Assembly (NCBI GenBank): GCA_963851265.1 | Contig: CAWKNZ010000002.1 | Location: 704,001-768,000, forward strand | Direction: 5' to 3' | Length of the DNA stretch: 64,000 nt | Origin: an uncultured Gemmatimonadales bacterium | GTDB lineage: Bacteria; Gemmatimonadota; Gemmatimonadetes; Gemmatimonadales; Gemmatimonadaceae | Part shown: one piece after another, positions 189 through 64,000 of the stretch | Position numbering within the stretch: the stretch's first letter is position 1 | Layout: the number at the start of each line of letters is the position of its first letter | Position numbers and translations under genes: made by a program | The notes under the pieces: generated by a model | The model's database searches: none | What the model was told of the DNA's origin: nothing | What the model saw: the letters and a program-made list of their open reading frames with translations, nothing else

Positions 189-3100
189 TTAGGAACCGCG
201 GACCAGCTTGACCCGCTCGTCACCGAGCAGGGCGCGCAGCTCGCCGAGGGCGGCGTTGGAGGCGGCGACGGTGAGGGAGCGCGAGCGGAACCGCGCCGCG
301 CCGCCGCCCTTGGCGTCGCGCCAGCGCAGCTCGAGCGCCGCGGTGCCCGGGTAATGCGCGCACGCCTCGCGCACGTCGGCCATCACGCCCGGCGTCAGGT
401 CCGCGCCCGAAGCCAGCTCGATGGCGACCGCGATCGCGCCGTCGACGCGCTTCTCGGCCAGCTTCGTCACCTTCTCGACGATGAACGTCGGCGTTTCCGC
501 GTCCTGGTCGCGGCGCGAGTAGCCGCCCTCGACCAGCACCGGAACGTCGGTCTTGACCTGGTCCGACAGCACGCTCCACGCCTCTGGGAAGACGAGCACC
601 TCGGTGGCGCCCGAGAAGTCCTCGAGGATGAGGCGGGCGAACTCCGACCCGCTGCGTTTGCTGATCTGCCGCTTGCACGCGGTAATCACGCACGCGAGCA
701 CGATCTTGTTGGGCGTCCAGCTGCCCAGCTCGGCCACCTTGTGCGTGCCGAACAGCTCGGCCTCGGCGCGGAACGGCTCCAGCGGGTGCCCCGACACGTA
801 GAAGCCGAGGATCGCCTTCTCGGCGGCCAGGCGGTCGCTCTCGCTCCACGGCGGCAGGTGCGGCAGCGTCGGGCGCGGTGCGGGCTTCGCGCTCGCCTCG
901 TCGCCGCCGAGGAGTCCGAACAGCGAGCCCTGCCCGCTCGCGGCCTCCTGCTGCTTGAGCGAGGCTTCCTGCATCGCGTGGTCGAGCGCGGCGAGGTACT
1001 GCGCGCGGTGCCCGCCCACGGTGTCGAGCGCGCCCGCGTGGATGAGGGCCTCGAACACGCGCTTGTTGCACGCGCGCAGGTCGACCCGCTCGACGAAATC
1101 GAAGAAGTCCGTGTACGAGCCGTCCTTCGCGCGGGCGCCGAGCACCGACTCGACGGCGCCCTCGCCGACGTTGCGCACCGCGCCCAGCCCGAAGCGTATC
1201 CGGTTGTCGGCGATGACCGTGAACTTGTAGCCGCTCTCGTTCACGTCGGGCGGCAGCACCTCCAACCCCATCTCGCGTGCCTCGGCCACGTACTTCACCA
1301 CGCTGTCGGTGTCGCCGATGCAGCTGGAGAGCAGCGCGGCCATGAAGTCGGCCGGGTAGTTGGCCTTGAGGTACGCCGTCTGGTACGAGAGGACCGAATA
1401 CGCGACCGAGTGCGACTTGTTGAAGCCGTAGCGTCCAAACGTTTCGATCTGCCCCGCGAGCTCCTCGATCACGCCGCGGCCGTGCCCCTTCGCGATCGCC
1501 TTTTCCGTGAACTTGCCCAGCTCGGCGCGGATGAGCTCCGCGTCCTTCTTGCCTACCGCCTTGCGCAGCACGTCCGCCTCGGCGAGCGAGATCCCCGCGA
1601 GCGTCTGCGCGATGCGCATCACCTGCTCCTGGTAGGTGATCACGCCCTGCGTCTCGCGCAGGATCGGCTCCAGCTCGGGGAGCGCGTAGCTCACCGGCTC
1701 CTCCCCGCGCTTGCGCCGGATGTAGACCTTGTGCATCCCCGTGTCGAGCGGGCCGGGGCGGAGCAGCGCGTTGCTCGCGACGAGGTCGTCGAAGCGGTCG
1801 CACCGCATCTGCCGCAGCACGTCCGTGGCGAGCGGCGACTCGAACTGGAAGACGCCGGCCGTGCGCCCGGAGCGCAGCATCTGGTACGTCTTCGGGTCGT
1901 CGAACTCGAGCGCGTCGAGGTCGAGCGCCTTCCCCGTGCGCCGCTCGATCGAGACGAGCGCGTCGTGGATGACCGTGAGCGTGGTCAGCCCGAGGAAGTC
2001 CATCTTGAGCATGCCCGCCTTTTCGAGCGCGGTCATGTCGTACTGCGCGACGGTCACCTTCTCGTCGCCGTCGCCGCCCGCGCCCTTGCTGGCCTGGGTG
2101 CAGACGGGAACGAACTCGTGCACCGGGCCCGGGGCGATCACCACGCCGGCCGCGTGCACGCCGGTGTGTCGCGACAGCCCTTCGAGCGCGACGGCGTAGT
2201 CGAGCAGCTCGCGGTAGCGGGGGTCCTCCTTGTAGAGCCGCGCGACGTCGGGGACCTGCGTGAGCGCTTCGGCGACGGTGAGCGAGAAGTTGGGCGCGTT
2301 GGGAATGAGTTTGGCCAGCGCGTCGGTCTCGGCCGGGGTGAAGCCGAGCACGCGGCCGACGTCTTTCACCGCCGCGCGCGACTTCATCGTCCCGAACGTG
2401 ACGATCTGGCAGACGCTCTCCTTGCCGTACTTCTGCCGCACGTACTCGATGACCTCGCCGCGGCGCTCGAAGCAGAAGTCCACGTCGACGTCGGGCATCG
2501 ACACGCGCTCCGGGTTCAGGAAGCGCTCGAACAGCAGGTCGAACTTGAGCGGGCAGACGTTGGTGATGCCTAACGCGTAGGCGACGAGCGACCCCGCCGC
2601 CGAGCCGCGCCCCGGGCCCACCGGGATGCCGCGGTCGCGCGCGGCCTTGATGAAGTCGGCGGTGATGAGGAAGTAGCCCGCGTACCCGGTCTGCAGGATG
2701 ACGCCGAGCTCGTACGCGAGCCGCTGCTCGACCTCGGCGCTCAGCGTCCGGCCGTACCGCTCGTGCGCGCCCTCGGTGGCGAGCTTGACGAGCAGGTCGT
2801 TCTCGGTCTCGACGCCGGGCGGGAGCGGGAAGCTCGGCACGTGGTACTTCTTGCCGAACACCACGTCGACCTCGTCCGCGATGCGCAGCGTGTTCTCGAG
2901 GACGTCGGGGCGGTCGGTGAAGCGCGCCGCCATCTCCGGGCGGCTCTTGAAGTAGAGCCCCCGGTCGTAGTGCATCCGGTTCTCGTCCTTGACGTCCTTG
3001 CCGATCCCGATGCAGAGCAGGACGTCGTGCGCGTCGTGGTCGGTCTCCTTCAGGAAGTGCGCGTCGTTGGTCGCGATGACCGGAAGCCCGAGTTCCGCGC

Positions 3101-3680
3101 CGAGCTTGAAGATCTGCGCGTTGAGCTTCGACTGGCCGTCGCTGTCGTGCGCCTGCACCTCCAGGTAGTACCGATCCTGGAAGACGTTGGCGTACCACTC
3201 GGCCGCCTCGCGCGCCGCGTCCCAGCGGTCGTCCATGAGGTGGCCCGCGACCTCGCCCGCGAGACACGCCGACGAGACGATGATCCCCTCGCTGTGTGCG
3301 GCGAGCAACTCGCGGTCGACCCGCGGCTTCACGTAGAAGCCCTCGAGGTACGCGAGCGACGAGAGCTTGACGAGGTTCTTGTAGCCGACCGCGTCGCGCG
3401 CGAGGAGCACGAGGTGGTGGTACGGCTTGGCGCCGGGTGCGGGGCGGCCGCGGTCGTGGCGCGAGCCGGGCGCGACGTACGCTTCCATCCCGAGGATGGG
3501 CTTGACCTTCGCCTTGCGCGCGTGCTCCTGAAACTCCCACGCCGCGTGCATGTTGCCGTGATCCGTCACGGCGAGCGCCGGCATCTCGAGCTCCTGGGCG
3601 CGGCGGATCAGCGAATCGATCCGGTTGGCGCCGTCGAGGAGCGAGTATTCGGAATGGCAGTGCAGGTGTACGAAGCTCAT
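189..3680 (-). CDS. dnaE: DNA polymerase III alpha subunit
   Basis: PHP domain FVHLHCHSEYSLLDG, GPGRGSAAGS, PERVSMPDVDVDF, YGFNKSHS; 1163 aa. Confidence 0.98.
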   Translation of the reverse strand: MSFVHLHCHSEYSLLDGANRIDSLIRRAQELEMPALAVTDHGNMHAAWEFQEHARKAKVKPILGMEAYVAPGSRHDRGRPAPGAKPYHHLVLLARDAVGYKNLVKLSSLAYLEGFYVKPRVDRELLAAHSEGIIVSSACLAGEVAGHLMDDRWDAAREAAEWYANVFQDRYYLEVQAHDSDGQSKLNAQIFKLGAELGLPVIATNDAHFLKETDHDAHDVLLCIGIGKDVKDENRMHYDRGLYFKSRPEMAARFTDRPDVLENTLRIADEVDVVFGKKYHVPSFPLPPGVETENDLLVKLATEGAHERYGRTLSAEVEQRLAYELGVILQTGYAGYFLITADFIKAARDRGIPVGPGRGSAAGSLVAYALGITNVCPLKFDLLFERFLNPERVSMPDVDVDFCFERRGEVIEYVRQKYGKESVCQIVTFGTMKSRAAVKDVGRVLGFTPAETDALAKLIPNAPNFSLTVAEALTQVPDVARLYKEDPRYRELLDYAVALEGLSRHTGVHAAGVVIAPGPVHEFVPVCTQASKGAGGDGDEKVTVAQYDMTALEKAGMLKMDFLGLTTLTVIHDALVSIERRTGKALDLDALEFDDPKTYQMLRSGRTAGVFQFESPLATDVLRQMRCDRFDDLVASNALLRPGPLDTGMHKVYIRRKRGEEPVSYALPELEPILRETQGVITYQEQVMRIAQTLAGISLAEADVLRKAVGKKDAELIRAELGKFTEKAIAKGHGRGVIEELAGQIETFGRYGFNKSHSVAYSVLSYQTAYLKANYPADFMAALLSSCIGDTDSVVKYVAEAREMGLEVLPPDVNESGYKFTVIADNRIRFGLGAVRNVGEGAVESVLGARAKDGSYTDFFDFVERVDLRACNKRVFEALIHAGALDTVGGHRAQYLAALDHAMQEASLKQQEAASGQGSLFGLLGGDEASAKPAPRPTLPHLPPWSESDRLAAEKAILGFYVSGHPLEPFRAEAELFGTHKVAELGSWTPNKIVLACVITACKRQISKRSGSEFARLILEDFSGATEVLVFPEAWSVLSDQVKTDVPVLVEGGYSRRDQDAETPTFIVEKVTKLAEKRVDGAIAVAIELASGADLTPGVMADVREACAHYPGTAALELRWRDAKGGGAARFRSRSLTVAASNAALGELRALLGDERVKLVRGS

Positions 3681-3757
3681 CGTCCTCGAAGGTTAGCGCG
3701 GCCGCCCGCCCGCCGCCATGCCCGCCTGATCGCGCGGTCAGTCCTGTAACGTTCTAC

Positions 3758-4912
3758 ATGGCAATAACTTACGTTCGTTCCTGGCGGCGGGGCCTGCGCC
3801 GGACGCTCGGCGGCCTGGCGGCCCTGGTCGCGCTCGGCCTGGTGGGTACGACCGATGGACGGTGGCTGGTGCGGGCGGGGTGGGAGGAAGGCCGGATCCT
3901 GGAGCGCCGCCGCCCGATCGCCGAGGTCGCGCGCGAGGCCGCCGCGTCGCGGCCCTCACCGAGCGACGCGCGGACGCGAGGGAAGCTGCAGCTCGTGCTC
4001 GCCGCGCGCGCGTTCGCGGCCGACTCGCTCGGGCTCAACGCGGGGCACAGCTTCGAGTACTACACCGACATCGGGCGCGACACCCTCCTGCTGCTGCTCA
4101 CCGGTGCGCGCCGCGATACGCTCGCGCCGGTGACGTGGTGGTTCCCGGTGGTCGGGAGTGTGCCGTACAAGGGCTTCTTCGACGCCGCCGCGGGTCGGCG
4201 TGCGCGCGACGACCTGCGCGCGCACGGTTACGACGCCTACCTCCGGCCGTCCTCCGCGTTCAGCACCCTCGGCTGGTTCGCCGACCCGCTACTCAACACG
4301 GCGATCGTCGGCGACTCGGTGGACCTCGCCAACACGGTGATCCACGAGCTGACGCACAACACGTTCTACGCGCCGAGCCAGGCGGCGTTCAACGAGAGCT
4401 TCGCGAGCTTCGTCGGCGCGCGCGGCGCGGAGCGGTTCTTCGCCGCGCGGGGCGATACGGCGTCGGTGGCCGCGGCCGGGCGTCGGTGGGCCGACGAGCG
4501 CACGCTCGGCGAGTTCTGGGCGGCGTTAGGCAGGTCGGTCGACTCGGCGTACGCGGCGCACCCCGGACGCGACTCGGCCGCGCGCGCGGCGCGGCTCGCG
4601 GCGCGCGCGGACGTGACCGTCGCCGCGCGCCGTGCCCTCGCCGACAGCGTGGTCCCGCGGCTCGTCGATCCGCGCCGGACGCGCGGCGGGCCGGCCGCGC
4701 TCGCGCGGTGGGCGGCGCGGACGCCGCTCGACAACGCCGCCCTGCTCGCACGCCGCACGTACGCGCGCGAGCTGGCGCTGTTCGACGCCGTGTACGCGCG
4801 CGAGGGGAGCGACCTCCGGCGGAGCATCGCACGGCTCATCGCGCTCGCCAAGTCCGACCCGAAAGACCCGTACGGGGCGGTGCGGCGGTGGGTGGGCAGA
4901 GTCCCGTCGTGA
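3758..4912 (+). CDS. Predicted zinc aminopeptidase (DUF2265-like)
   Basis: N-terminal hydrophobic segment; WWFPVVGSVPYKGFF, FSTLGWFADP, HELTH (HExxH) and downstream FNESFASF. Confidence 0.8.
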   Translation: MAITYVRSWRRGLRRTLGGLAALVALGLVGTTDGRWLVRAGWEEGRILERRRPIAEVAREAAASRPSPSDARTRGKLQLVLAARAFAADSLGLNAGHSFEYYTDIGRDTLLLLLTGARRDTLAPVTWWFPVVGSVPYKGFFDAAAGRRARDDLRAHGYDAYLRPSSAFSTLGWFADPLLNTAIVGDSVDLANTVIHELTHNTFYAPSQAAFNESFASFVGARGAERFFAARGDTASVAAAGRRWADERTLGEFWAALGRSVDSAYAAHPGRDSAARAARLAARADVTVAARRALADSVVPRLVDPRRTRGGPAALARWAARTPLDNAALLARRTYARELALFDAVYAREGSDLRRSIARLIALAKSDPKDPYGAVRRWVGRVPS

Positions 4913-4919
4913 GGCGAGG

Positions 4920-7291: not shown

Positions 7292-8059
7292 TCAACGACC
7301 AGAACTGGCCGGTTGAAGCCGGCCGAGCAGTCGCGCCCGGAGATCGGCCGACTCCACCTTCGCCGGTGTGAGGCCGAACGCGCGTGCGAGGGACTCGGTC
7401 ACTGCCCCGCCCACGCGGTCGACGCTGGCGTCCGCCGCGAGCGCGGCCGGTGCCTCGCGGGCCACGGCAGTCATCTCGACACCGTCGATCCCGCACGGCA
7501 CGATGAGGTCGAAGTAGGCGAGTGGCTCGGGTGTCACGTTCAGCGCGAATCCATGCGACGTCACCCACTCGCGCGCGTGGACGCCGATCGACGCGAGCTT
7601 CCGCGGCAGGCCGGACGTGCCTGACGCGCCACCCGACGCCTCGGGGTCGGTCCACACCCCCGTGAACGGCGGGTTGCGCCCGGCCGCCACCCCAAACTCG
7701 GCGACCGCGTCGATGAGCGCCTGTTCGACTTGCCGGAGGTACCAGTGCAGGTCGCGGCGGTGACGCTTGAGGTCGATGATCGGGTACCCGACGAGCTGTC
7801 CGGGGCCGTGGAACGTGCTGCCGCCGCCGCGCTCGACCTCGTGCAGCTCAACGCCGCGCGCGGCCAGGAGGGCGGGCGAGGCGAGCAGACGGTTGTCGGC
7901 CGCTCGCCGGCCTAACGTGAGGACCGGCGGGTGCTCGACGAGGAGGAGCAGGTCCTCGTCGAGGTCGCCCGCGACGCGCGCGGCCGCGGCGGCTCGCATG
8001 AGGGCGAGCGCGTCCGCGTATGGCGTGAGGCCGAGGGACGTGACGAGGAGGTCGGCCAT
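7292..8059 (-). CDS. lipB: Lipoyl(octanoyl) transferase
   Basis: LVEHPPVLTLGR, ERGGGSTFHGPGQLVGYPI, KLASIG, HGFALNV, IVPCGI. Confidence 0.95.
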   Translation of the reverse strand: MADLLVTSLGLTPYADALALMRAAAAARVAGDLDEDLLLLVEHPPVLTLGRRAADNRLLASPALLAARGVELHEVERGGGSTFHGPGQLVGYPIIDLKRHRRDLHWYLRQVEQALIDAVAEFGVAAGRNPPFTGVWTDPEASGGASGTSGLPRKLASIGVHAREWVTSHGFALNVTPEPLAYFDLIVPCGIDGVEMTAVAREAPAALAADASVDRVGGAVTESLARAFGLTPAKVESADLRARLLGRLQPASSGR

Positions 8060-14380: not shown

Positions 14381-15613
14381 ATGCAGCTCGTGTCGAGGGC
14401 GCTTCGGTGCGCGCGACGAACCACGCCCGCGATCGCGGCCGGCGTCGCGAGCACGGCCGGGCGGATGCTGGTCGCCGCGGCGCTCGCAATGTGCGGACTC
14501 GGCAGCGCGTCCGCCCGCGCACAGGCACCGAGTACCGTCCCGGACGCGCGTCACACGGTGATCGGGAGCGTCCGCGCGGCCGACGAAAGCCGGCTCGTTG
14601 GCGCGCACGTGCAGCTCAACCGCCCGGGCCGAACCGGCGCGCCTGCGATCGTCGTGATCACCGAGGCGGACGGCGTGTTCCGCTTCGAGCACGTTCCGGA
14701 AGGCTCGGCCGCGCTCGTCGTCCGGCGCCTCGGTTTTCGCCCCGAAACTCTCAGCGTCGAGGTCCCGCAGCTCGAAGGCGGTCCGGTGGTCGTGGCGCTC
14801 GAACGCGTGGCCCAGCAGATCGCTCCGGTGACGGTCCGCGGGACCCGGCATGCGGCGCGCCTCGCGTCGGCGTTCGAACGCCGGCGTGCGAGCGGGCTCG
14901 GGCGGTACATCACGCGCGAGGAGATCGAGCGCCGGAACCCCCAGCGCACGACCGATCTCCTCCGCGACCTGGCCGGCGTGACCGTGACCGGGTCAGGACC
15001 GCGCTTCCGGGGCGCGGGAAGCGCGTCGTGCAGCCCGGTCTATTTTCTCGACGGGATGCCGGTCGGCGCCGGGACGCTCGACCTCGACGCGATCAGCCCG
15101 AAGTCGATCGAGGCGATCGAGGTCTACAGCGGCGCCGCGACGGTGCCGGCGGCGCTGCGTACCGCGATGTCGCCCGGGGGGTGCGGCGCGGTCGTCCTCT
15201 GGAGCCGGCAGGGGAGCACACCCCGCGATCTGTTAGGCGCGGTCGGTGCGGTCGACTCGCTGGAGGACATCGTCTCGCGTGGCCTCGCGTACACGGCGGA
15301 TCAGGTCGAACTCGCGGCGGCTCCGCTTCCCGGGCTCGGCCCAGTTCCGGCGTACCCCGACTCGCTGCTCGCGGCGGGCGCGCGGGGGCGCGTGGTGGCC
15401 GAGTTCATCGTCGACGGGCAGGGACACGTCGACGCCGAAACGGTCGGCATCGTATCGAGTTCACACCCCCTATTCGCCGAGGCCGTGCGTGCGGCCGTGA
15501 TCGACGCCCGGTTCTCGCCCGCGTATCGGGAGGGGCACGTCGTGCGGCAGGTAGTGCACCTGCCGGTCGACTTCGACCCGCGCGGTCCGACCGCGGCACC
15601 CGCGCCTCGCTGA
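14381..15613 (+). CDS. Exported fusion protein: carboxypeptidase-regulatory-like domain + TonB-receptor plug-like domain + TonB C-terminal domain
   Basis: GGAGG before ATG 14381; TEADGVFRF/VRRLGFRP; YITREEIE...YFLDG...IEAIEVYSG...CGAVVLWS; YPDSL...GRVVAEFIVD...F.PA...V...V.LPVDF. Confidence 0.75.
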   Translation: MQLVSRALRCARRTTPAIAAGVASTAGRMLVAAALAMCGLGSASARAQAPSTVPDARHTVIGSVRAADESRLVGAHVQLNRPGRTGAPAIVVITEADGVFRFEHVPEGSAALVVRRLGFRPETLSVEVPQLEGGPVVVALERVAQQIAPVTVRGTRHAARLASAFERRRASGLGRYITREEIERRNPQRTTDLLRDLAGVTVTGSGPRFRGAGSASCSPVYFLDGMPVGAGTLDLDAISPKSIEAIEVYSGAATVPAALRTAMSPGGCGAVVLWSRQGSTPRDLLGAVGAVDSLEDIVSRGLAYTADQVELAAAPLPGLGPVPAYPDSLLAAGARGRVVAEFIVDGQGHVDAETVGIVSSSHPLFAEAVRAAVIDARFSPAYREGHVVRQVVHLPVDFDPRGPTAAPAPR

Positions 15614-15684: not shown

Positions 15685-15715
15685 CCACCCGCACGTCGTT
15701 AGGCGACCGCGCCGC

Positions 15716-18225: not shown

Positions 18226-19317
18226 TCAGCTCGTCGTGTCGACGAGCACGTCTTCGTAGAGCGTCTCGGGCGCGGGCTCGGGGCTCGCCTCGGCGAAGTC
18301 CCACGCGTCCTGCACCACCGCCTTCACCTCGTCGTCCATCGCCTGCACGCCCGCGTCGTCGATCTGCCCGCGTTCCTGCATCGCCGCGCGGAGCAGCGTG
18401 ATGGGGTCGCGCTGGAGGTACTCGTCGAGTTCCTGCTTGCTGCGGTACGTGCCGCTCACCGCGTCGCTCATGGAGTGGCCCATGAAGCGGTACGTGCGCA
18501 CCTCCAGCAGCGTGGGCGTCTGCTCGGCCCGCGCGCGGTCGATCGCCTCCTGCATCGCCTTCCGGACCGCGAACACGTCCTGCCCGTCGCACTGGCCGCG
18601 GGGCATGTTGTACGCCGCACCCCGCTCGTAGATGTCGTGGATCGCGGAGGCGCGCTCGAGCGCGGTGCCCATGCCGTAGCGGTTGTTCTCGATCACGTAG
18701 ACGGCCGGCAGCTTCCAGAGCCCCGCCATGTTGAGCGCCTCGTGGAACGCGCCGGTGTTCACGACGCTCTCGCCCATGAAGCAGACGCACACCTGGTCGC
18801 CGCCGCGGTACTTGATGGCGAACGCGACCCCGGTGCCTAACGGCACGTGCGCGCCGACGATGCCGTGCCCGCCGAGAAATCCGGTCTGGCGGTCGAAGAG
18901 GTGCATCGAGCCGCCCTTGCCGCGGACCACGCCGTCGGCGCGGCCGAACAGCTCGGCCATGATCGCGCGCGGCGAGATGCCGCGCGCGAGCGCCTGGCCG
19001 TGGTCGCGGTAGGTGGTGATGATGTAGTCGTCGGGGCGGAGCAGGCTCATCGCGCCGGTGCTCACCGCCTCCTGCCCGATGTAGAGGTGGCAGAACCCGC
19101 CGATGCGGCCAATCGCGTACGCCTCCGCCGTGCGCTCCTCGAATCGGCGCTGGAGGAGCATCGAGCGGAGCATCGCACGGTTGAGCTCCGCGTCGCCGGC
19201 CGGGTCGGCGGCCGCGGGGTCAGCAGGAGCGGGGTCGGCGGGCGTCGTCGCCGCCGGCGCGGGCGGCGCGTCCATCACGGCGGTCGCGCCGTTCGAGTCA
19301 GGCTTCTTCTTGGCCAT
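18226..19317 (-). CDS. pdhA: Pyruvate dehydrogenase E1 alpha subunit
   Basis: ATG 19317 (MAKKKP); GFCHLYIGQEA, GKGGSMH, ENNRYGMGT, RFMGHSMSD. Confidence 0.96.
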   Translation of the reverse strand: MAKKKPDSNGATAVMDAPPAPAATTPADPAPADPAAADPAGDAELNRAMLRSMLLQRRFEERTAEAYAIGRIGGFCHLYIGQEAVSTGAMSLLRPDDYIITTYRDHGQALARGISPRAIMAELFGRADGVVRGKGGSMHLFDRQTGFLGGHGIVGAHVPLGTGVAFAIKYRGGDQVCVCFMGESVVNTGAFHEALNMAGLWKLPAVYVIENNRYGMGTALERASAIHDIYERGAAYNMPRGQCDGQDVFAVRKAMQEAIDRARAEQTPTLLEVRTYRFMGHSMSDAVSGTYRSKQELDEYLQRDPITLLRAAMQERGQIDDAGVQAMDDEVKAVVQDAWDFAEASPEPAPETLYEDVLVDTTS

Positions 19318-20706: not shown

Positions 20707-20746
20707 GCCCGGCGCGGCGGGCGACCGCGACGGGCCGCCCGATGCG

Positions 20747-26911: not shown

Positions 26912-26940
26912 CGGCCGCCTAACTGGCTCGCGGCGGGCGC

Positions 26941-28515
<1,575 letters not shown>

Positions 28516-35417: not shown

Positions 35418-38342
<2,925 letters not shown>

Positions 38343-38368: not shown

Positions 38369-38394
38369 GGGGCGGGGCCTAACGGTCCCGCCCC
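38369..38394. terminator. Stem-loop between convergent gcvP and gcvH
   Basis: GGGGCGGGGCC-TAAC-GGTCCCGCCCC. Confidence 0.55.
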
Positions 38395-42703: not shown

Positions 42704-42754
42704 CCGCGCACCGCGCGCCGCGTCGGGCGGCGCGTTCCGCCGGCGCCTAACGTC

Positions 42755-48655: not shown

Positions 48656-48893
48656 TACGACGGGATCTCGGTGGGCCGCGCTCCGCGCGGCCCGCCGCGT
48701 TCGTTAGGCACTCACGCGCGCCGTCGGTCGGCACGGTCGGCGACGACCGTGTGCGTGTGACGCCGGTCACGCGTCAGAGGGGGCGGTGGGGTGGGCCGGG
48801 GCGTCGGTGTCTAGACCAGCATGCGCGCGATCGCGCCGCGCCGGCGCAGTCTGTAGCTTCAGCGTTCCTCGTCGTCTGCCGCACCCCCCGCCG

Positions 48894-50414
48894 ATGTCCC
48901 TCCCCTTTCGCACCCCGCGCCTGGCGGCCGCCGCGCTCTCGGCCGCGCTCGCGCTCCTCGCGGTCGAATCCAGCGGCGCCCAGCAGCCGGGCCCGGCGCC
49001 CGCGCCGCTCGCCGGCGTCGCCGGTCCGGTCGGATCGCCGATCCCCGGCCCGTCGCTCGGCGACACCGCGATCACCATCCCGATCCCGACGGTGCCCGCG
49101 AGCTTCGGCGGCCCCGCGGCGGCGACGTTCGCGCACACGCCCGGCCTGACGTGGGACCTGGACGTGCTGCCCTACGAGGGGCACCAGCGCGTGCAGCGGT
49201 ACGTCACCCTGTTCAGTACCGGCGCCCGCGACCGGTTCACGGAGTACCTGCACCGCGGCACGCGGTACGACTCGCTCATCCGCGGCAAGCTGCGCGCGGG
49301 CGGGTTGCCCGAGGACCTCACGTACCTCGCGCTCGTCGAGAGCGGCTACGACGTGCACGCGACGTCGCGGGTGCGCGCGGTCGGCATGTGGCAGTTCATG
49401 GCCGAAACGGCGCGCGACGTCGGGCTGCGCGTGGACTGGTGGGTCGACGAACGCCGCGACCCGGTGCGCTCCACCGACGCCGCGGTGCGCACGCTGCGCT
49501 GGCTCAAGGGGCAGTTCGGCTCGTACTTCGTCGCCGCGGCCGCGTACAACGGCGGCTCCGGGCGCGTGTCGCGCGGACTCGCGCAACTCGCTGACGTCGA
49601 CAGCGCGGGCGCGGCCGCTCCGGGCGAGGCGCGCTTCTTCGCGCTCGCCGAGCACGACGTGCTGCACGACGAGACGAAGAACTACGTCCCGCAGCTCATC
49701 GCGGCCGCGCTCGTCGCGAAGGAGGCGCCGCGCTACGCGATCCGCCCGGCGCCGCTCCCGCCGCTCGCGTACGACTCGGTGCGCGTGCCGGGCCTAACGC
49801 CGCTCGCCGCGGTCGCCGCCGCGAGCCGCGCGTCGCGCGCCGACCTGCTCGACCTCAACCCGCACCTGCTGCGCGGCGTCACGCCGCCGGGCGCGGCGCT
49901 GCTCGTGCGCGTCCCGGCCGGGCAGGGCGCCGCCGCCGCCGAGCGGTTCTCCAAGCTGGGTGACGAAATTCGGCGGGCGTTCCACGCGTCGGTCACGCGC
50001 AAGCGCGAGACGTGGGCCGCGCTCGCGGAACGCCTCGGCACGCCGCGCACGTGGCTCGAGCGGTACAACGCTGGGCTGGCCACCGTCGCCCACGGCCGCA
50101 ACCGCGGGCGGCTCGTGAGCGGGCAGACGGTGCGCGTGCCCACCGACGCCGTGATCGCCTACTCGCAGGACGTGGCGAGCGACGGCGGCGGGCCGGGCGC
50201 GCTCCCCCGCCTGGCGGCGGCCGCAGAGGCGGCACCGGGCGACGCGGCGCCCGCGGACGAGCCCGCGGCGAAATCCGAACGCCGCCGCGGGCCGCGCGCC
50301 GACGTCCGCGCGACGGCCGCCGTGCGCGGTCAGCATACCGCTCACGCCAAGGCGCGCATCACCGTGGCGAAGCTGCACCGCCGGCGCGGCGCGGGGGCGA
50401 ACCGCGAGGGGTGA
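48894..50414 (+). CDS. MltD-like lytic murein transglycosylase with degenerate LysM-like repeats
   Basis: ATG 48894; LALVESG (catalytic Glu), AVGMWQFM, DERRDP, AAYNGG, ETKNYVP, DLNP.L. Confidence 0.88.
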   Translation: MSLPFRTPRLAAAALSAALALLAVESSGAQQPGPAPAPLAGVAGPVGSPIPGPSLGDTAITIPIPTVPASFGGPAAATFAHTPGLTWDLDVLPYEGHQRVQRYVTLFSTGARDRFTEYLHRGTRYDSLIRGKLRAGGLPEDLTYLALVESGYDVHATSRVRAVGMWQFMAETARDVGLRVDWWVDERRDPVRSTDAAVRTLRWLKGQFGSYFVAAAAYNGGSGRVSRGLAQLADVDSAGAAAPGEARFFALAEHDVLHDETKNYVPQLIAAALVAKEAPRYAIRPAPLPPLAYDSVRVPGLTPLAAVAAASRASRADLLDLNPHLLRGVTPPGAALLVRVPAGQGAAAAERFSKLGDEIRRAFHASVTRKRETWAALAERLGTPRTWLERYNAGLATVAHGRNRGRLVSGQTVRVPTDAVIAYSQDVASDGGGPGALPRLAAAAEAAPGDAAPADEPAAKSERRRGPRADVRATAAVRGQHTAHAKARITVAKLHRRRGAGANREG

Positions 50415-52806: not shown

Positions 52807-54000
52807 ATGGAAGCGCGCAGCATCCCGTTCCCGATCGCCGCCCGGCGCGCCCACCCGCGAGTCGCGGCTCTCCCGTGGCCGCTCGCCGCGACCCTGTTCG
52901 CCGCGACGAGCATCGCCGTCGGCATCATCTGGGACATCTCGTGGCACATGTCCATCGGGCGCGACACGTTCTGGACGCCCGCCCACATGGCCATCTACGC
53001 GGGCGGCGTCGCGGGCGGACTCGCCAACGCGTGGCGCATCTTCCGCACGACGTGGTCGGCGGACGACGACGCGCGGGCGGGCGCCGTCCGCGTGTGGGGC
53101 TTCCACGGTCCGTTAGGCGCGTTCGTCTCGTGCTGGGGCGCGGGCGCGATGCTCGTCTCCGCGCCGTTCGACAACTGGTGGCACGACGCGTACGGCCTCG
53201 ACGTGCAGATCCTCTCGCCGCCGCACACGGTGCTGCTGCTCGGAATCGCGGGTGTGCTGCTCGGCGCCCTGCTCACGGCGATCGCGTTCCAGAACGCCGC
53301 GGAGGCGGGCGGGTACCCGGCGGAGCGCGTGGCGACGTTCCGCGTCGCGTACGTGTACGCGTCGGCGCTCCTGGTCACCATGGCCAGCATCGGCGCGTAC
53401 GAGTACACACGGCCCATCATGCTGCACAGCGGGCGGTTCGTGCGCGCGACGGCGTGGGCGTTCCCGCTCTTCTTCTGTGCGGTCGCACGCGCATCGCGCC
53501 TGCGCTGGCCGGCGACCGTCACGGCGCTGCTCTACATGGTGATGTTCGCCGCGACGTCGTGGATCCTGCCGCTGTTCCCCGCGACGCCGAAGCTCGGGCC
53601 GATCTACAACCCGATCACGCACATGGTGCCGCTCGGGTTCCCGCTGCTCTTCGTCGTCCCCGCGTTCGCCATCGATCTCGTGCTGCGCCGATGGACGCGC
53701 CCGCCGGGGTGGGCGCTCGCCGCCGTGCTCGGTGCGTCGTTCGTCTGCCTCGTCCTGGTGGTGCACTGGCCGTTCGGCACGTTCCTGCTCTCGAGCGCGT
53801 CGCACAACCGGTTCTTTGCCGGCGGTCAGTTCAGCTACGGCGTGCCTCCGACGGCGTTTTCGCGCCGCGGCGTGTTCCCTCCGGTCGAGAAGAGCGCGGC
53901 CGAGTACTGGTCACGGGTCGGTTGGGCGGTGGTGATCGCGACCGTGTCGGCGCGCCTCGGGCTCGCGTGGGGCGGGTGGATGCGGCGGGTGCGACGGTGA
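52807..54000 (+). CDS. Polytopic membrane protein with two PmoC/AmoC-like metal-site motifs
   Basis: D43-ISW-H47-x12-H60 (DISWHMSIGRDTFWTPAH) and D122-NWW-H126-x13-H140 (DNWWHDAYGLDVQILSPPH); about 10 hydrophobic segments. Confidence 0.75.
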   Translation: MEARSIPFPIAARRAHPRVAALPWPLAATLFAATSIAVGIIWDISWHMSIGRDTFWTPAHMAIYAGGVAGGLANAWRIFRTTWSADDDARAGAVRVWGFHGPLGAFVSCWGAGAMLVSAPFDNWWHDAYGLDVQILSPPHTVLLLGIAGVLLGALLTAIAFQNAAEAGGYPAERVATFRVAYVYASALLVTMASIGAYEYTRPIMLHSGRFVRATAWAFPLFFCAVARASRLRWPATVTALLYMVMFAATSWILPLFPATPKLGPIYNPITHMVPLGFPLLFVVPAFAIDLVLRRWTRPPGWALAAVLGASFVCLVLVVHWPFGTFLLSSASHNRFFAGGQFSYGVPPTAFSRRGVFPPVEKSAAEYWSRVGWAVVIATVSARLGLAWGGWMRRVRR

Positions 54001-55547
54001 GTGGGCGCGCGCACGCGTGCCGGGCGTGGCGCGCCGTGCGCGTCGCGATCGCCTGGGCGCTCGTGTTCTGCGCCACGCCGGCCGGCGCGCACGTCGGCAC
54101 GACTGACGCCGTGTTCAGCGGACGTGCGGGGCCGTATCCGGTCCGCGTGACCGTGCGGATGCCGGGCGCGATCCCCGGTCAGGCCGAACTCACCGTGCGG
54201 GTGCTCGACGGCGCGGGGACCGGCGTGTTGGTGCAGGTCGCGCAGTGGAACGTCGGCTCGCGCGGTGCGCCCGCGCCCGAACCGGCCGCGCGCGTCGCCG
54301 GCACCGCCGACCTGTGGAGCGCCCCACTCTGGCTGATGACGAGCGGCTCGTACGCGGCCAACGTGACGGTCGACGGCGCCCGGGGGCGTGCGACGGTGAC
54401 CGTACCGGTCGTTGCCGTGCCGACCACGCGGCTCGGGATGGATCGTCGGCTCGGCGCGCTGCTCGCGGCGTTGGGCGTCGTGCTCGTCGCCGGTCTCGTC
54501 GCCGTCGTCGCTGCGGGCGTGCGCGACGGCACTCGCGCGCCCGGTGCCGCGCTCGACGGGCCGGCGCGCCGGCTCGGCCGCCTCACGACGGCAGTCACCG
54601 CGGCCGTCGTCGCGCTCGCGCTCGTCGGCGGCGCGAAGTGGTGGGGCGCGGAAGACGCCGCGTTCGCGGGCGGGCTCTGGCGCCCGCTGCGGAGCGAAGC
54701 GCGCGTGCTCGACGGGGCCGACGGTCCGCGCCTCCGCTTCACCGTCACCGATTCGGCGTGGTTCGACTCGACGCTCACGCCGCTGATGCCGGACCACGGC
54801 AAGCTCATGCACCTGTTCGCGGTGCGCGAGTCGCCGACGACCGGACCGCGACGCGACTCGGCGCCCCGCGGTCGCGACGTGTTCGCCCACCTGCACCCCG
54901 TGCGCGTGGACCGGGCCAACTTCGACGCGCCGCTGCCCACGCTTCCCGGCGGTCGCTACCGCGTGTACGCCGACGTCGTGCACGAGAGCGGGCTCGCGCG
55001 CACCCTCGTCGCGACGCTGGACCTGCCCGACGCGGCGGTCGCGATCCCGGCCGGGGGGCTCGACGCGGGCGACGACGCGTGGGACGCGGTGCGCCCGCCG
55101 CCGCCCGGCGCGGCCGCATCGTTAGGCGCGGGCTACCGCCTGACGATGGAGAGCGCCGCCCGCGTGCCCGCGGCGCGCGACACCGTACTCCGCTTCACGG
55201 TGCGCGACGCGGCGGGGCGGGTGGCCGACGTGGAGCCATACCTCGGCATGGCCGCGCACGCGGTCGTCGAGCGCGACGACGGCAGCGTGTTCGTCCACCT
55301 CCACCCGTCGGGCACGGTCTCGATGGCGGCGCAGGACCGGCTCGTGCGCCGCGAGCGCGGCGACACCGCGCTCCACGGCGCCGCGCAGCCCGGCGGCATG
55401 CCGGGCATGGCCGGCATGCAGACGACGTACGGGGGCGACGTGGGATTCCCGTTCAGCTTCCCGAAGCCCGGCGCCTACCGCGTGTGGGTGCAGGTGCGCG
55501 TGGCCGGGCACGTACGCACGGCGGCGTTCGACGTGACCGCGAGCTGA
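53997..55547 (+). CDS. Exported membrane-anchored His/Met-rich putative copper protein
   Basis: GTGA overlap with the upstream gene; signal peptide ending AGA|H; beta domain, two TM helices, two repeated domains with HGKLMH/HLHP and MAAH/HLHP; GGMPGMAGM. Confidence 0.72.
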   Translation: MSGRAHACRAWRAVRVAIAWALVFCATPAGAHVGTTDAVFSGRAGPYPVRVTVRMPGAIPGQAELTVRVLDGAGTGVLVQVAQWNVGSRGAPAPEPAARVAGTADLWSAPLWLMTSGSYAANVTVDGARGRATVTVPVVAVPTTRLGMDRRLGALLAALGVVLVAGLVAVVAAGVRDGTRAPGAALDGPARRLGRLTTAVTAAVVALALVGGAKWWGAEDAAFAGGLWRPLRSEARVLDGADGPRLRFTVTDSAWFDSTLTPLMPDHGKLMHLFAVRESPTTGPRRDSAPRGRDVFAHLHPVRVDRANFDAPLPTLPGGRYRVYADVVHESGLARTLVATLDLPDAAVAIPAGGLDAGDDAWDAVRPPPPGAAASLGAGYRLTMESAARVPAARDTVLRFTVRDAAGRVADVEPYLGMAAHAVVERDDGSVFVHLHPSGTVSMAAQDRLVRRERGDTALHGAAQPGGMPGMAGMQTTYGGDVGFPFSFPKPGAYRVWVQVRVAGHVRTAAFDVTAS

Positions 55548-57142: not shown

Positions 57143-57949
57143 ATGCCCAACCTCCGTATCGCGGCGATGAGCGACGTGCACGTCACGAAAACGTCGCAAG
57201 GCGCGCTCGCGCCGATCCTCGCGCAGGTGGCCGACCAGGCCGACGTGCTGCTCCTCTGCGGTGATCTGACCGACTACGGCAACGCCGACGAGGCGCGCGT
57301 GCTCGTGAAGGAGCTGTCGCACCTCCGCATCCCGATCCTCGCCGTGCTCGGCAACCACGACTTCGAGGGCGGCCACCCGGAGCAGCTCGTCGACGCGCTC
57401 CGCGACGCGGGCGTCGTCGTGCTCGACGGCGAGTCGCACGAGGTGGGCGGCGTGGGCTTCGCCGGCGCGAAGGGCTTCGCGGGCGGCTTCGGCCGCGGGG
57501 TGCTCGGCGCGTGGGGCGAGCCGACGGTCAAGCACTTCGTGCAGGAGGCGGTGAGCGAGACGCTGAAGCTCGAGACGGCGCTCGCGCGACTCCGCACGCG
57601 GCAGAAGGTCGCGCTCCTCCACTATTCCCCGATCCGCGCGACGGTCGAGGGCGAGCCGCTCGAGATCTTCCCGTGGCTGGGTTGCGGGCGGCACGAGGAG
57701 CCGCTGCTGCGCTATCAGGTGAGCGCCGTGTTCCACGGGCACGCGCACAACGGCACGCCCGAAGGCGCGCTCGCCAACGGCGCGCCGTGCTACAACGTGG
57801 CGCTGCCGCTGCTCCGGAAGCAGTTCCCCGACCGGCTGCCCGTCAAGATCATCGAGCTCGACCCCGACGAAGCGCCTAACGCCCCGCCCGACGCGTACAG
57901 CGGGATGGAGCGGCGCCGGGCGGGCGCGGGGGCGAACGGGGCGGCGTGA
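57143..57949 (+). CDS. Calcineurin-like metallophosphoesterase
   Basis: ATG 57143; SDVH, GDLTD, GNHD, LLHY, HGHAH. Confidence 0.92.
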   Translation: MPNLRIAAMSDVHVTKTSQGALAPILAQVADQADVLLLCGDLTDYGNADEARVLVKELSHLRIPILAVLGNHDFEGGHPEQLVDALRDAGVVVLDGESHEVGGVGFAGAKGFAGGFGRGVLGAWGEPTVKHFVQEAVSETLKLETALARLRTRQKVALLHYSPIRATVEGEPLEIFPWLGCGRHEEPLLRYQVSAVFHGHAHNGTPEGALANGAPCYNVALPLLRKQFPDRLPVKIIELDPDEAPNAPPDAYSGMERRRAGAGANGAA

Positions 57950-58040: not shown

Positions 58041-58049
58041 CCGGCCGTT

Positions 58050-59228
58050 CTACGGCTTCAACACCACCTTGATGCACCCGTCCTTCTTGTCGCGGAAGGT
58101 CCGGTACATCTCGGGCGCCTTGTCGATCGGCACGCGGTGGGTGATGACCTGCGACGGGTCAATCTTCCCGGCCTCGATCATGTCGAGCAGCGGGCGCAGG
58201 TACTTCTGCGTGTTCGTCTGCCCCATCTTGAACGTGAGGCCCTTCGCGAACGCCGCGCCCATCGGGAACTTGTCGATGAACCCGATGTAGACGCCCGGAA
58301 TGCTCACCGTGCCGCCCTTCGCGCAGGCCATGATCGCCTCGCGGAGCGCCGTCGCGCGGTCGAGTTGCACCTTGGTGAACTGCTTGAACCGGTCGACCTG
58401 ATCGTAGATGCCGGTCCCGTGCGCCTCCATCCCGACCGCGTCGATCACGTGGTCCGGCCCGCGGCCGCCGGTCATGTCCTTCAGCACGAAGTTGATCGGG
58501 TCCTCGATCTCCTCGTAGTTCACGACCTCGGCCTTACACAGGTCGCGCGCCTTGGCCAGCCGGTCGGGGAAGCGGTCCACCGCGATCACCCGCTCGGCGC
58601 CTAACAGATACGCGCTCTGGATCGCGAACAGCCCCACCGGCCCGCAGCCCCACACCGCCACCGTGTCCCCGGGCTGGATGCCGCACTGCTCCGCCGCCTG
58701 GTAGCCCGTCGGGAAGATGTCGGTGAGAAAGAGCACCTTCTCGTCGGCGATGTCGCTCTCGATCTTGAGCGGCCCGACGTCGGCGAACGGGACGCGCGCG
58801 TACTCGGCCTGGCCGCCCGCGTACCCGCCGTACAGGTGCGAGTACCCGAACAGCCCCGACGGGCTGAACCCGCCGGTCGACGCCTCGACGAGCGCGGCGT
58901 TCGGGTTGGAGTTGTCGCACTGCGACCAGAGGTCGTTCTTGCAGTAGTAGCAGTTGCCGCACGCGATCCCGAACGGGATCACCACGCGGTCACCGCGCTT
59001 GAGGTTCTTGACGCTCGGGCCCACCTCCTCGACCACGCCCATGAACTCGTGGCCCATGACGTCGCCCTTCATCATCGACGGGACCTTGCCGTCGTAGGGG
59101 TGGAGGTCCGAACCACAGATCGCGGTCGAGGTGATCTTGATGATCGCGTCGCGCGGGTTGACGAGCTCGGGGTCGGGCACGCGCTCGACGCGCATGTCGC
59201 CGACGCCCTGCCAGGTCACGGCCTTCAT
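58050..59228 (-). CDS. Zinc-dependent alcohol/formaldehyde dehydrogenase (YbdR/Fdh-like)
   Basis: ICGSDLH, GHEFMG, CGNCYYC...[17 protein letters not shown]. Confidence 0.92.
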
Positions 59229-60280: not shown

Positions 60281-60302
60281 CGTCAGCCTCCGTGATCGCG
60301 CG

Positions 60303-61196
60303 TCAGAGCGCGCTGTGAGTGGGCTTGTTGCGCAGCCCGTCGCGCGTGTGCTCCAGCTTGAGGTCGCTCTCGGGCTCCTTCTTCAGCGCGCGGTCGGCCT
60401 GCGGACCCATCGACCCCTTCACGATCGTCGTCCCGCCGTCCACGAAGAACAGCGCGCCGGTCACGTAGCTCGCCTCGTCCGAGGCGAGGAACGCGAAGGC
60501 GTTGGCCATCTCCGTCGCCGTCCCGCGACGGCCTAACAGGGTGCCCTCGACCGTTTGCGTCTCCATGGTCTTCGTCATCGGGCCGGTCTCCCGGTGCGTC
60601 CACGCGGTGTCGACTGGGCCCGGACAGACGCACGCCGCGCGCACGCCGTTCTTCGCCTGCTCGCCCGCCACGCCGCGGATGAACGCGTGCATGAAGCCCT
60701 TGGTCCCGCCGTAGGGCACGTTGAGCGGCTCGCCCTTGTCCCCCGCCTCGGAGCCGGTGCCGAGCACCACGCCCTTGCTCTTCTGCAGGTGCGGCAGGGC
60801 GAACTTCGTCATCAGGAACGCCGACCGGACGTTCATCCGCAGCGTGCGGTCGAAGTCGTCGATCGGGTAGTCGGTCAGCTCGCCGGTGAACAGGAAGATT
60901 CCCGCGTTGTTCACGAGTACGTCGAGCTGCCCGAACTCACGCACCGCCTTGTCCACGCAGCCGCGCGCGTCGACCTCGGCCGAGACGTCGCCCGCGTATC
61001 CGACCGCGGTTCCGCGCCCGTACTGCTTGTTGATCGCCTCGACCACGTCGGCGACGGGATCGTCCGGAAGGCCGCAGACGAGCACCTTCGCCCCTTCCGA
61101 CGCGAACTTGTGCGCAGTGGCCTCGCCGATCCCCGTTGCGGCGCCAGTGATGATCGCCACCTTCCCCTCCAACCGCCCTTTTCGATCCGCTGCCAT
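60303..61196 (-). CDS. Short-chain dehydrogenase/reductase
   Basis: TGAATGIG, NNAG, YGGTK, PGPVDT. Confidence 0.93.
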   Translation of the reverse strand: MAADRKGRLEGKVAIITGAATGIGEATAHKFASEGAKVLVCGLPDDPVADVVEAINKQYGRGTAVGYAGDVSAEVDARGCVDKAVREFGQLDVLVNNAGIFLFTGELTDYPIDDFDRTLRMNVRSAFLMTKFALPHLQKSKGVVLGTGSEAGDKGEPLNVPYGGTKGFMHAFIRGVAGEQAKNGVRAACVCPGPVDTAWTHRETGPMTKTMETQTVEGTLLGRRGTATEMANAFAFLASDEASYVTGALFFVDGGTTIVKGSMGPQADRALKKEPESDLKLEHTRDGLRNKPTHSAL

Positions 61197-61340
61197 TGGG
61201 TCCTCCCCGGATATCGTCGCCGCTCTGGTTGAGCGGCCCGGGCAGGCGCAAAGCAGGTGCCGCCGCTGTCGCGCGGGCGCGACTGCAGCGGAGGCGGGCG
61301 CACCGTGCGCCGGTACAGCTCGCTCGCCGTGGCGAGCTCC

Positions 61341-61378
61341 GAACGGCGCCGCTGGTCGCGCGACCAGCGGCGCCGTTC
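61341..61378. repeat. Perfect 38-bp palindrome with no spacer
   Basis: GAACGGCGCCGCTGGTCGC|GCGACCAGCGGCGCCGTTC. Confidence 0.85.
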
Positions 61379-61423
61379 AACGCGCGGGCGCGGTACGGCG
61401 CGCCGCGTCGCCCGAAGCCGCGT

Positions 61424-62065: not shown

Positions 62066-62080
62066 GAGCGGTAAGGTAGG

Positions 62081-63328: not shown

Positions 63329-63356
63329 GGCCGCGTGTGCTGGAGGGAACCGCGCC

Positions 63357-64000
63357 TCACCGCCGCGGGATCCGCGCCGCACCCGGCGGCCGGAACGCGT
63401 CGTACGCGTCCTGGACCCGCGCGAGCGCTTCCTCCGGGCGCGCGCCCACGGCCGACACGTGCCCCATCTTGCGCCCGGCGCGCGCCTCGCGCTTGCCGTA
63501 CAGGTGGAGCCGCGCGGTCGGCACCGCGAGCGCGGCCGGCACGTCGGGCGGTCCGTCGGCGAGCCAGAGGTCGCCGAGCAGGTTGGCGATGGCCCCCGCC
63601 CCCACCGGCGCCGGGCTGCCTAACGGCAGGGCGCACGCGGCCCGCACGAGTTGCTCGAACTGACTCGTCGCGTTCGCGCGCTCCGACGCGTGATACGTGT
63701 TGTGCGGACGCGGCGCGAGCTCGTTCACGAGCACCCGCCCGTCGCCGGTGAGGAACAGCTCCACGGCGACCAGCCCCTCGATTCCGAGCGACTCGGCGAT
63801 GCCGATCGCGACCTCCGCGCCGGCGCGCGCGACTGCGGGTTCGATCGGGGCGGGCGTCGCCGCCCACGTCAGCACGCCCGCCGCGTGGTGGTTGCGCGAC
63901 GGCGGGTAGACGGCGAGCTGTCCGTCGGCCGCGCGCGCGACGAGCACCGAGAACTCCAGCGCGAGATCCAGCCGCTGCTCGACGACACTGCGTCGGGCGC
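63357..64000 (-). CDS. purK: N5-carboxyaminoimidazole ribonucleotide synthase (3' part)
   Basis: [30 protein letters not shown]. Confidence 0.92.

Follow-up and report, generated by a model that had tools for sequence, protein, structure and literature searches.

Here we describe a seven-base word, GCCTAAC (GTTAGGC on the complementary strand), that is iterated throughout the genome of an uncultured bacterium of the Gemmatimonadaceae (Gemmatimonadota; assembly GCA_963851265.1) and was first noticed in a 64,000-nucleotide stretch of it, positions 704,001 to 768,000 of contig CAWKNZ010000002.1, the whole of which we call the window. We found that copies of the word accumulate by point change in place and are held there. 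A single process that reaches 150-300 bp to each side, and in which word-bearing DNA wins local replacement, accounts best for this retention, for the mutual exclusion of neighbouring copies and for a halo of raised G+C around them. As a possible, tentatively held explanation, we propose molecular drive by biased uptake of short DNA from kin; by analogy, the word may work like a DNA uptake sequence (DUS), as a signal with unusually short tracts.

The source genome (G000; 4.6 Mb in 12 contigs, written C1, C2 and so on, with other G labels denoting comparison genomes) holds 1,762 copies, 877 on the plus and 885 on the minus strand. This is 18 times the 96 copies expected from an order-2 Markov model (126 for order 3), and all 12 contigs carry the word, at 0.33-0.55 per kb. 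Within our own gene calls (3,760 genes from a dicodon model, with start codons as predicted), 1,288 coding copies stand against 43-66 in 10 synonymous-codon shuffles, an excess of about 20-fold. The preliminary description of the window had taken the word to be more frequent there than chance allows, and these counts extend that excess to the rest of the genome. It had also placed the responsible force at the level of DNA, and this view is upheld: the Leu-Gly dipeptide is not enriched (1.03; Pro-Asn 1.16), which means that the force acts on the DNA, the word is carried in three reading frames, in stop codons and in spacers, and the exclusion described below crosses gene borders.

The spelling of the word is strict. 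TTA codons lie inside it in 993 of 1,281 cases and TAA stops in 123 of 437, and 84 more copies overlap gene ends in the manner of GT-TAG-GC. Among leucine codons in a G-Leu-GGC context, TTA is used at 986 of 5,686 sites (17.3%), versus 187 of 96,547 sites with at least two context changes; any single change lowers its use to 0-3%, so that the core is almost all-or-none. The eighth base is graded, with TTA at 781 of 2,872 sites for G, 163 of 1,543 for A, 26 of 512 for T and 23 of 817 for C. The best spelling of the word is GCCTAAC(G>A), and its one-off variants showed no excess in either coding or intergenic DNA of the source genome. Permissive positions such as TAA stops are favoured: density is 1.49 per kb between convergent genes and 0.28 per kb between divergent genes, and it rises from 0.13 to 0.53 per kb from the lowest to the highest of eight classes of G+C at third codon positions (GC3), a measure that is only a proxy for acquired DNA and is itself raised by the halo. 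Mutational bias alone (GCCCAAC to GCCTAAC) was rejected, as GCCCAAC is not depleted and retention far exceeds occupancy.

Retention was measured in codon alignments of 71-76 genes per genus mate. In three genus mates the rare codon within the word is kept at 18 of 26, 22 of 27 and 21 of 28 sites, versus 53 of 1,048, 117 of 979 and 73 of 1,029 for other rare codons (5-12%). Such retention, far above that of other rare codons, indicates that the sites are held by selection or drive, with slow turnover; the conservation at orthologous positions that the preliminary description proposed to examine amounts to about 70-80% of sites within the genus. G300 has 3 of 19 source-genome sites in common, and in 18 more distant genomes none of the 1-3 aligned sites each is shared. 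G236 and G293 share 51 of 63 sites despite a four-fold-site identity near 0.53. Gains and losses are substitutions in place and in frame, some of which alter the residue.

Rich genomes are few and scattered. All four genus mates of the source genome are rich (977-3,304 copies), and by hand count 13 of 301 genomes in an even draw of the phylum exceed 100 copies per Mb, with 10 of 70 in the same family, 3 of 125 in a second family and none elsewhere (these denominators include G011, G079, G118 and G199, all with low counts). Among relatives, density ranges from about 90 to 1,500 per Mb, and a single genus contains G236 with 5,926 copies, G293 with 6,209 and G289 with 99. In a gcvP tree of 23 genomes the rich ones are spread across several clades, although this quick one-gene tree does not settle gain versus loss. 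The spelling was identical in every rich genome sampled (8-100 kb per genome). A search of the same samples for dialects was negative, since no other NNCTAAN word takes its place in poor genomes. For population variation we had one run covering a small share of the window, with contigs at 85% mostly from other organisms; it gave nothing usable and no habitat evidence.

Mutual exclusion, the G+C halo and gaps at parAB loci

Copies exclude each other within about 300 bp; the preliminary description had proposed to examine the regularity of their spacing. Gaps shorter than 200 bp number 46 of 1,750, versus 139 expected from 200 permutations among possible sites with local rates kept. Possible sites are used at 3 of 713 positions within 100 bp of a copy, 18 of 807 at 100-200 bp and 39 of 806 at 200-300 bp, and at about 9.5% (8-11%) beyond 300 bp. 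Exclusion was seen for same-direction, convergent and divergent pairs, also over gene borders. It fails for non-coding pairs less than 150 bp apart, which are mostly duplications, hairpins and attC sites. Close pairs were also considered as marks of an autoregulated reader gene and rejected: the 26 pairs consist of attC sites, hairpins and tandem duplications, and the genes next to them are unrelated. Short repeats in tandem, 12-15 bp long and holding the word, were noted at G000:C8:143542, 241284 and 305727, at L026:3058 and at L029:12298; in one of them the adjoining units are one or two bases short of the word.

Around the copies lies a symmetric halo of low A+T. At four-fold sites flanking 990 coding copies of the source genome, A+T is 0.028 within 60-100 bp on both sides, 0.033 at 100-160 bp, about 0.04 at 200 bp and 0.043-0.052 beyond 500 bp, and no dip appears at 419 control sites taken from those genes. 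The halo is visible at two-fold sites too. It follows the base at +1, being present with G and A, faint with T and absent with C, and it is missing at four near-miss words (219-900 sites), while two rarer controls (26 and 29 sites) were noisy. Beside copies common to genus mates A+T is 0.005-0.012, and a halo was also found in G236 and G293 (0.15 and 0.13 near, 0.23 and 0.20 far). Fits of the decay with distance gave lengths of 143-203 bp in the case of exclusion and of 169-189 bp in that of the halo. Divergence between G and C did not differ between near and far in any of five genome pairs, and therefore the DNA around the word is not generally shielded from change. Retention of A/T was lower near copies in two of the five pairs (95% intervals -0.21 to -0.02 and -0.42 to -0.16). 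Biased conversion to G/C therefore seems a better, though still tentative, match for the halo than shielding does. Among the candidates offered in the preliminary description, the halo and exclusion data favour a DNA-uptake sequence and a repair-driven motif over a protein-binding site.

The word also leaves gaps at parAB loci. Its largest desert in the source genome, C1:182,876-227,962, has none of 131 possible sites used and contains mnmG, parA, parB and three parS-like palindromes; this first case was found from the gap list and is post hoc. The other three parA-parB loci lie in gaps of 21, 15 and 14.5 kb. None of the four has a copy at or within 6 kb on either side, a state that holds for 2.4% of the genome, and the orphan ParA has no such gap. 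ParB is a protein that spreads over kilobases. At eight held-out loci in G001, G004 and G300 we counted 6 copies within 3 kb versus 30.2 expected, with one locus (G001:C4) lacking a gap; the set omits G004:C5, which has a ParA and no ParB match, and a ParB-like match in the G300 chromosome with 6 copies within 3 kb, and adding the latter gives 12 versus about 34. Nine chromosomal parS loci of other rich genomes had 25 copies versus 33.6 expected, so the effect is weak outside the clade of the source genome. All these expectations are genome means that ignore overdispersion. Chromosomal parS gaps measure 6-9 kb in G001, G004 and G300 and 1.6-3.2 kb in G012, G236, G288 and G293. A conserved 45-kb origin desert was rejected, being present in the source genome only.

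Two side observations concern these loci. An apparently genus-wide variant parS, TGTGGCACGTGCCACA, stands beside parAB at G000:C1:186276, 192708 and 195714, at G001:C5:732446 and 735453, at G004:C1:1524698 and 1527620 and on G003:C539 and C925. The canonical parS pattern is missing in five of five genomes of the genus and present in 19 of 22 others, and the variant is likely to reflect a switch in ParB specificity. The extra parA-parB loci of the source genome (C8:256200-260526, C6:80667-85053 and C9:123172-127210) have large Rep-like neighbours with RPA and DnaA_N domains, which suggests three secondary replicons, with chromosome-like word density outside the par zones; a plasmid database search with the three ParA queries found no close relatives.

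These patterns could also be those of a site under selection, bound by an abundant nucleoid protein whose footprint or wrap takes in about 300 bp. Within that footprint further copies would be of no use, and selection would remove sites at which the protein obstructs promoters or the sliding of ParB. The length of exclusion, the parAB gaps, the low density between divergent genes and the strong retention all agree with such a protein, as does a weak 10.5-bp phase among pairs in the source genome (Rayleigh power 6.64). However, helical phasing was not repeated in four sets of relatives and was rejected (scan-wide p 0.06), and copies on C2 show no long-range periodicity in 5-kb bins. Densities that run from 90 to 1,500 per Mb, and near zero in G289, fit a rate of drive better than a structural need. 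Moreover, shielding from damage would keep A/T and lower all divergence, whereas divergence between G and C was unchanged in all five pairs and A/T retention was lower in two. We consider a nucleoid-protein site unlikely.

Candidate readers and a possible drive by biased uptake

Our search for a reader of the word was limited to the families named here, and incomplete genomes can hide genes. A HIP1-like or methylation-driven motif, as entertained in the preliminary description, is weakly supported at best, given that no m5C (PF00145) or N6_N4 (PF01555) methyltransferase was found in the source genome and that the methylated motifs of a word-rich relative differ. PF00145 had no match in three of three rich genomes (the source genome, G300 and G293) and matched in the poor genomes G289 and G089, while PF01555 matched in 5 of 10 rich genomes and, among poor ones, in 4 of 6. 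The source genome does encode one Type IIG-like methyltransferase, at C7:579717-585511 beside a helicase-like gene, and Type IIG sites resemble the word in being non-palindromic with an A next to last. Yet 45 of the 49 genomes compared within the class carry this enzyme, whether they are rich or poor in the word, and its C-terminal part has no column that divides 13 rich from 10 poor genomes (G289 was not in the comparison). With that spread and a conserved C-terminal part, the gene is unusually stable for one of restriction-modification. In Gemmatirosa kalamazoonensis, where a 50-kb part of plasmid 1 carries 31 copies and shuffles of it average 1.87, the methylated motifs are RGATCY, ATGCAC and CCAGN7TCA only, a list from which weak or unusual modifications could escape (PMC3974934).

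A Chi-like site, also among the earlier candidates, lacks support, since the word has no polarity. GC skew at four-fold sites was too noisy for placing origin and terminus, and we therefore used a dif-like site at C2:1,368,968 and the KOPS-type word GGGNAGGG, which flips at that site; both were recognised by the dif and KOPS consensus sequences. The raw count on C2 (354 versus 276 copies, leading strand in excess) results from gene direction, as use per opportunity is 240 of 2,719 (8.8%) at co-directional and 141 of 1,516 (9.3%) at head-on sites. With gene direction controlled, the strand bias between replichores that the preliminary description had thought worth examining was rejected. Positions of the word in the source genome show no restriction to the terminus or to one arm, and the word is equally common on the putative secondary replicons. 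A HIP1-type word of a cognate methyltransferase (with m6A at the penultimate A, or m5C) or a polar signal of the Chi or KOPS type is largely refuted, and we regard either as very improbable. As a side observation, a tyrosine recombinase gene lies 21 kb from the dif-like site, which itself sits where a region of strongly strand-biased genes switches; PMC11237797 describes this architecture for Gemmatimonadota.

A word-bound protein could also act inside the cell, by sequence-directed repair or gene conversion. It would direct two-sided short-patch repair in which word-bearing and G/C-bearing strands win, in the manner of an Elhai-type HIP1 ratchet that either lacks a classical methyl mark or uses a modification missed by standard single-molecule real-time (SMRT) calling. 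Exclusion would follow because the repair patch of a neighbouring copy would override any newly formed site (PMC4390886, section 3.4), and the symmetric halo, the enzyme-like all-or-none core (17.3% down to 0-3%) and the parAB gaps would be explained as well. MutL is present in five of five genomes, though it does not track the word. Against this, the searches for PF00145, PF01555, MutH (none in five genomes), Vsr (none in three rich genomes; one of five overall, a poor one) and NucS (weak NucS_C matches in 6 of 49 genomes, none in the source genome) brought no strand mark into sight, and the word, when unmodified on old and new strands alike, cannot by itself tell the strands apart. The par gap is also weak outside the clade of the source genome (25 versus 33.6, nine loci). 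We place this explanation, the main rival of biased uptake, on the unlikely side.

The word is also the attC core/inverse core of its lineage, with an exact match in spelling. Among 47 attC-like hairpins from 12 word-poor genomes, 70 of 94 ends read GCCTAACN, followed at +1 by G in 39, A in 22 and C in 9, the same G > A order as in the dispersed word; loci of four of the 12 genomes were picked for word pairs, which inflates this match, and 18 of the 47 sites come from one genome. The source genome has 14 attC-like hairpins in a cassette array. These spellings, together with the array and its two word-bounded IS110 copies, would suit an integron by-product or target, in which an integrase or an attC-seeking element spreads or stabilises the attC core word. 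However, 14 of 23 rich genomes have an integron integrase that scores above the cut-off, and so do 15 of 27 poor ones; its presence is independent of the word and so does not account for the dispersed copies. The integrase gene of the source genome is split by an inserted recombinase gene, and the copies arise singly, by in-frame substitution and without hairpin partners; dispersed copies are not paired 55-140 bp apart (the same 46 of 1,750 gaps lie below 200 bp). We judge such an origin to be quite unlikely.

Several features of the integron region were noted in passing. At G000:C6:2951-6230 the gene interrupting the integrase is that of a large serine recombinase on the other strand. The cassette array with attC sites spans C10:188,900-215,000 and C6:900-1,700, and two identical IS110-family transposase genes lie in it at G000:C10:200854-202062 and 206387-207595; each element begins at GCCTAAC and its gene ends in GCCTAAC. 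Outside this region, in 18-20 kb of two other genomes, other words are in excess: AAGACGA in G160 (L009; 15 versus 1.3 expected), and CATCCAC (27 versus 6.4) and CAACATC (14 versus 1.2) in G127 (L024). Repetition within a single gene, or the existence of additional iterated words, could explain them.

Drive by biased uptake is a known process (PMC7811141, PMC2397512, PMC2817400). Here, a protein reader would favour short pieces of kin DNA that bear the word, and the favoured pieces would be copied into the chromosome in word-centred tracts of a few hundred bases, with the bias acting at uptake or at survival of the incoming DNA. A second copy inside a tract would gain nothing and A/T variants within it would be resolved to G/C, as in GC-biased conversion, so that one process may lie behind both exclusion and halo. 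ParB-coated DNA would be closed to such recombination, and the drive would require no benefit to the cell. A full set of competence genes, namely those for ComEC, ComEA-type proteins, DprA and prepilins, occurs in five of five genomes tested. An orphan FimT-like pilin with a C-terminal GRxR-type tail (PMC8897410) occurs in 42 of 49 genomes; one Arg column of it seemed to track the word in 24 sequences and failed in 42. For Acinetobacter baylyi, PMC4255686 reports natural transformation with pieces as short as 20 bp, which enter the chromosome at replication forks. In a bolder variant, which we find doubtful, an uptake receptor for the attC core (GCCTAACG) would hunt gene cassettes in environmental DNA and pick up short kin DNA besides, the chromosomal copies being a side effect and each a 300-bp hotspot of GC-biased conversion. 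If true, this would be a new uptake signal linking natural transformation to integron cassette traffic, and would allow GC-biased gene conversion to be mapped in a bacterium at the scale of base pairs.

A number of observations weigh against biased uptake. None of the methyltransferases, integron integrases, repair nucleases or FimT pilins tested tracks the word; competence genes are found in word-poor genomes as well, prepilin counts do not follow the word either, and in the FimT-like pilin, the sole pilin compared, no column divides the 18 rich from the 24 poor genomes. Among relatives the exclusion loses strength (seven genomes have 86 pairs at 20-200 bp versus 146 expected), and it is absent in G300 (15 pairs versus 16.6 expected). 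Inverted terminator pairs are few, 6 of the 26 pairs within 100 bp. Faster loss of A/T near the word would be the sign specific to biased conversion, and in three of the five genome pairs the intervals for A/T retention span zero with estimates reversed, from a crude frame caller and few A/T sites. The spacing of known DUS fits conversion fragments of 1.1-1.7 kb (PMC2397512), far above the scale seen here. Known uptake sequences sit in preferred-codon frames with their tripeptides about doubled (PMC2817400), whereas the main frame here is a rare leucine codon and there is no enrichment of Leu-Gly. An effect inside the cell is the simpler reading of the parAB gaps; along with the short scale, the rare-codon frame and the enzyme-like specificity, these gaps leave some weight, short of making it probable, for an intracellular repair ratchet.

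Copies in the 64-kb window

The window holds 26 copies, 16 as GCCTAAC and 10 as GTTAGGC on the plus strand, every coordinate being exactly as the preliminary description had it; 100 dinucleotide shuffles gave a mean of 2.52 and a maximum of 7. Its hand counts are equally accurate for CTAA/TTAG tetramers (34 in total, 8 outside the word), for the purine after 25 of the 26 copies (G 20, A 5) and for the use of three frames (15 TTA-GGC, 3 CCT-AAC and 1 CTA-ACG). Of the remaining copies, by our gene calls, 2 supply a TAA stop and 5 are intergenic. The shortest gap between copies is 466 bp. The gene names it had given also agree with ours, dnaE, gcvP, lipB, pdhA and the MltD-like gene by NCBIfam and purK by Pfam domains; other names below are from NCBIfam. 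Strands refer to the word in the case of copies and to the gene in the case of genes, and copies read GCCTAACG unless stated otherwise.

In the TTA-GGC frame, GCG-TTA-GGC is found in dnaE (189-3680, -) at 2568..2574 (+), a site common to G002 and G004 and not G001, in the gene at 3869-4912 (+) at 4525..4531 (-) and in an oppC-like gene (30707-31645, -) at 31262..31268 (+). ACG-TTA-GGC lies in lipB (7292-8059, -) at 7910..7916 (+) and in an oligopeptide:H+ symporter gene (26941-28515, -) at 27838..27844 (+). CCG-TTA-GGC lies in pdhA (18226-19317, -) at 18835..18841 (+), in a glycogen-debranching-like gene (43762-45921, -) at 45679..45685 (+), in the gene at 52807-54000 (+) at 53112..53118 (-) and in purK (from 63357, -, leaving the window) at 63618..63624 (+). 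TCG-TTA-GGC occurs in the genes at 24256-25902 (+) and 54036-55547 (+), at 25485..25491 (-) and 55121..55127 (-). Spelled GCCTAACA are the copies with CTG-TTA-GGC in the gene at 14465-15613 (+) at 15232..15238 (-), in a Zn-dependent dehydrogenase gene (58050-59228, -) at 58599..58605 (+) and in an SDR oxidoreductase gene (60303-61172, -) at 60531..60537 (+), and the copy with GTG-TTA-GGC at 32620..32626 (+), at the start that we predict for an oppB-like gene (31642-32628, -).

The other frames are represented by GCG-CCT-AAC in gcvP (35418-38342, +) at 37298..37304 (+) and in the gene at 57143-57949 (+) at 57874..57880 (+), by CGG-CCT-AAC in the gene at 40266-42248 (-) at 40359..40365 (-), and by GGC-CTA-ACG in the MltD-like gene (48894-50414, +) at 49792..49798 (+). 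A TAA stop is supplied to the gene at 20747-21478 (-) as GCC-TAA at 20746..20752 (-), and to the glycogen-debranching-like gene by a GCCTAACA copy at 43761..43767 (-). Intergenic copies lie at 15698..15704 (-) between convergent genes, at 38377..38383 (+) 35 bp past the gcvP stop, at 42745..42751 (+) by our gene calls, at 48703..48709 (-) and, as GCCTAACT, at 26917..26923 (+) between convergent genes, the sole copy without a purine at +1. The two genes at 52807-55547 have no NCBIfam match and carry one copy each.

Significance and comparison with known systems

Genome-wide words of this iterated kind, known or suspected to serve DNA exchange, have been described in few lineages (Neisseriaceae, Pasteurellaceae and cyanobacteria), and the present word adds a little-studied phylum. 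A density range of more than 50-fold within one genus, together with a cultured strain with a complete genome, makes the reader accessible to comparison and pull-down. With about 1,800 spots per genome and a measurable decay length, the halo gives a local and quantitative way to ask whether the G+C of bacteria is raised by recombination or repair. TTA codons here mostly represent a signal in the DNA instead of one in translation, and including the word in constructs might aid transformation of a phylum with few genetic tools. We found no description of the word in this phylum in a literature search that covered mostly sources outside subscription journals. What is new here is that halo and exclusion share one length scale and that the halo depends on the eighth base, together with the held-out par-gap test, within its limits, and the list of failed readers.

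Chi, KOPS and architecture-imparting octamers are, like the word, short, asymmetric and enriched genome-wide, but they are polar about origin and terminus and the word is not. The attC core and inverse core have the consensus GTTRRRY / RYYYAAC; their commonest ends in the phylum, GCCTAACG...YGTTAGGC, are those of the word, and they overlap stop codons likewise, whereas dispersed copies stand alone, with neither L boxes nor a hairpin, and are independent of integrase presence. HIP1 (GCGATCGC) and the alternative HIPs of cyanobacteria share with the word an octamer scale, high iteration, placement in coding DNA and conservation beyond codon constraint, and the function of HIP1 is debated between a repair ratchet, chromosome structure and transformation (PMC4390886, PMC5861425, PMC13756078). 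In contrast to HIP1, the word is not palindromic, has no cognate methyltransferase found and no long-range periodicity, and its one-off variants are not enriched, whereas HIP1* variants are conserved.

The remaining comparison is with the DUS of Neisseriaceae, whose receptor is ComP, and the uptake signal sequences (USS) of Pasteurellaceae. The word differs from them in length (7-8 bp versus 9-12), in scale (150-300 bp versus 1-1.7 kb), in entering genes mostly through a rare codon without peptide enrichment, in having few inverted terminator pairs and in being patchy within a family, where density is 90-1,500 per Mb and the spelling stays the same; counterparts of the G+C halo and parAB gaps were not met in the excerpted DUS and USS descriptions. 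DUS and USS resemble the word in being short, non-palindromic and present in hundreds to thousands of copies on both strands, in arising by point mutation, in being conserved at orthologous sites and in being common just past stop codons; they are also scarce in new DNA, as the word may be (PMC7811141, PMC2397512, PMC2817400). Two USS within 100 bp bring no added uptake (PMC7811141), in line with the exclusion seen here.

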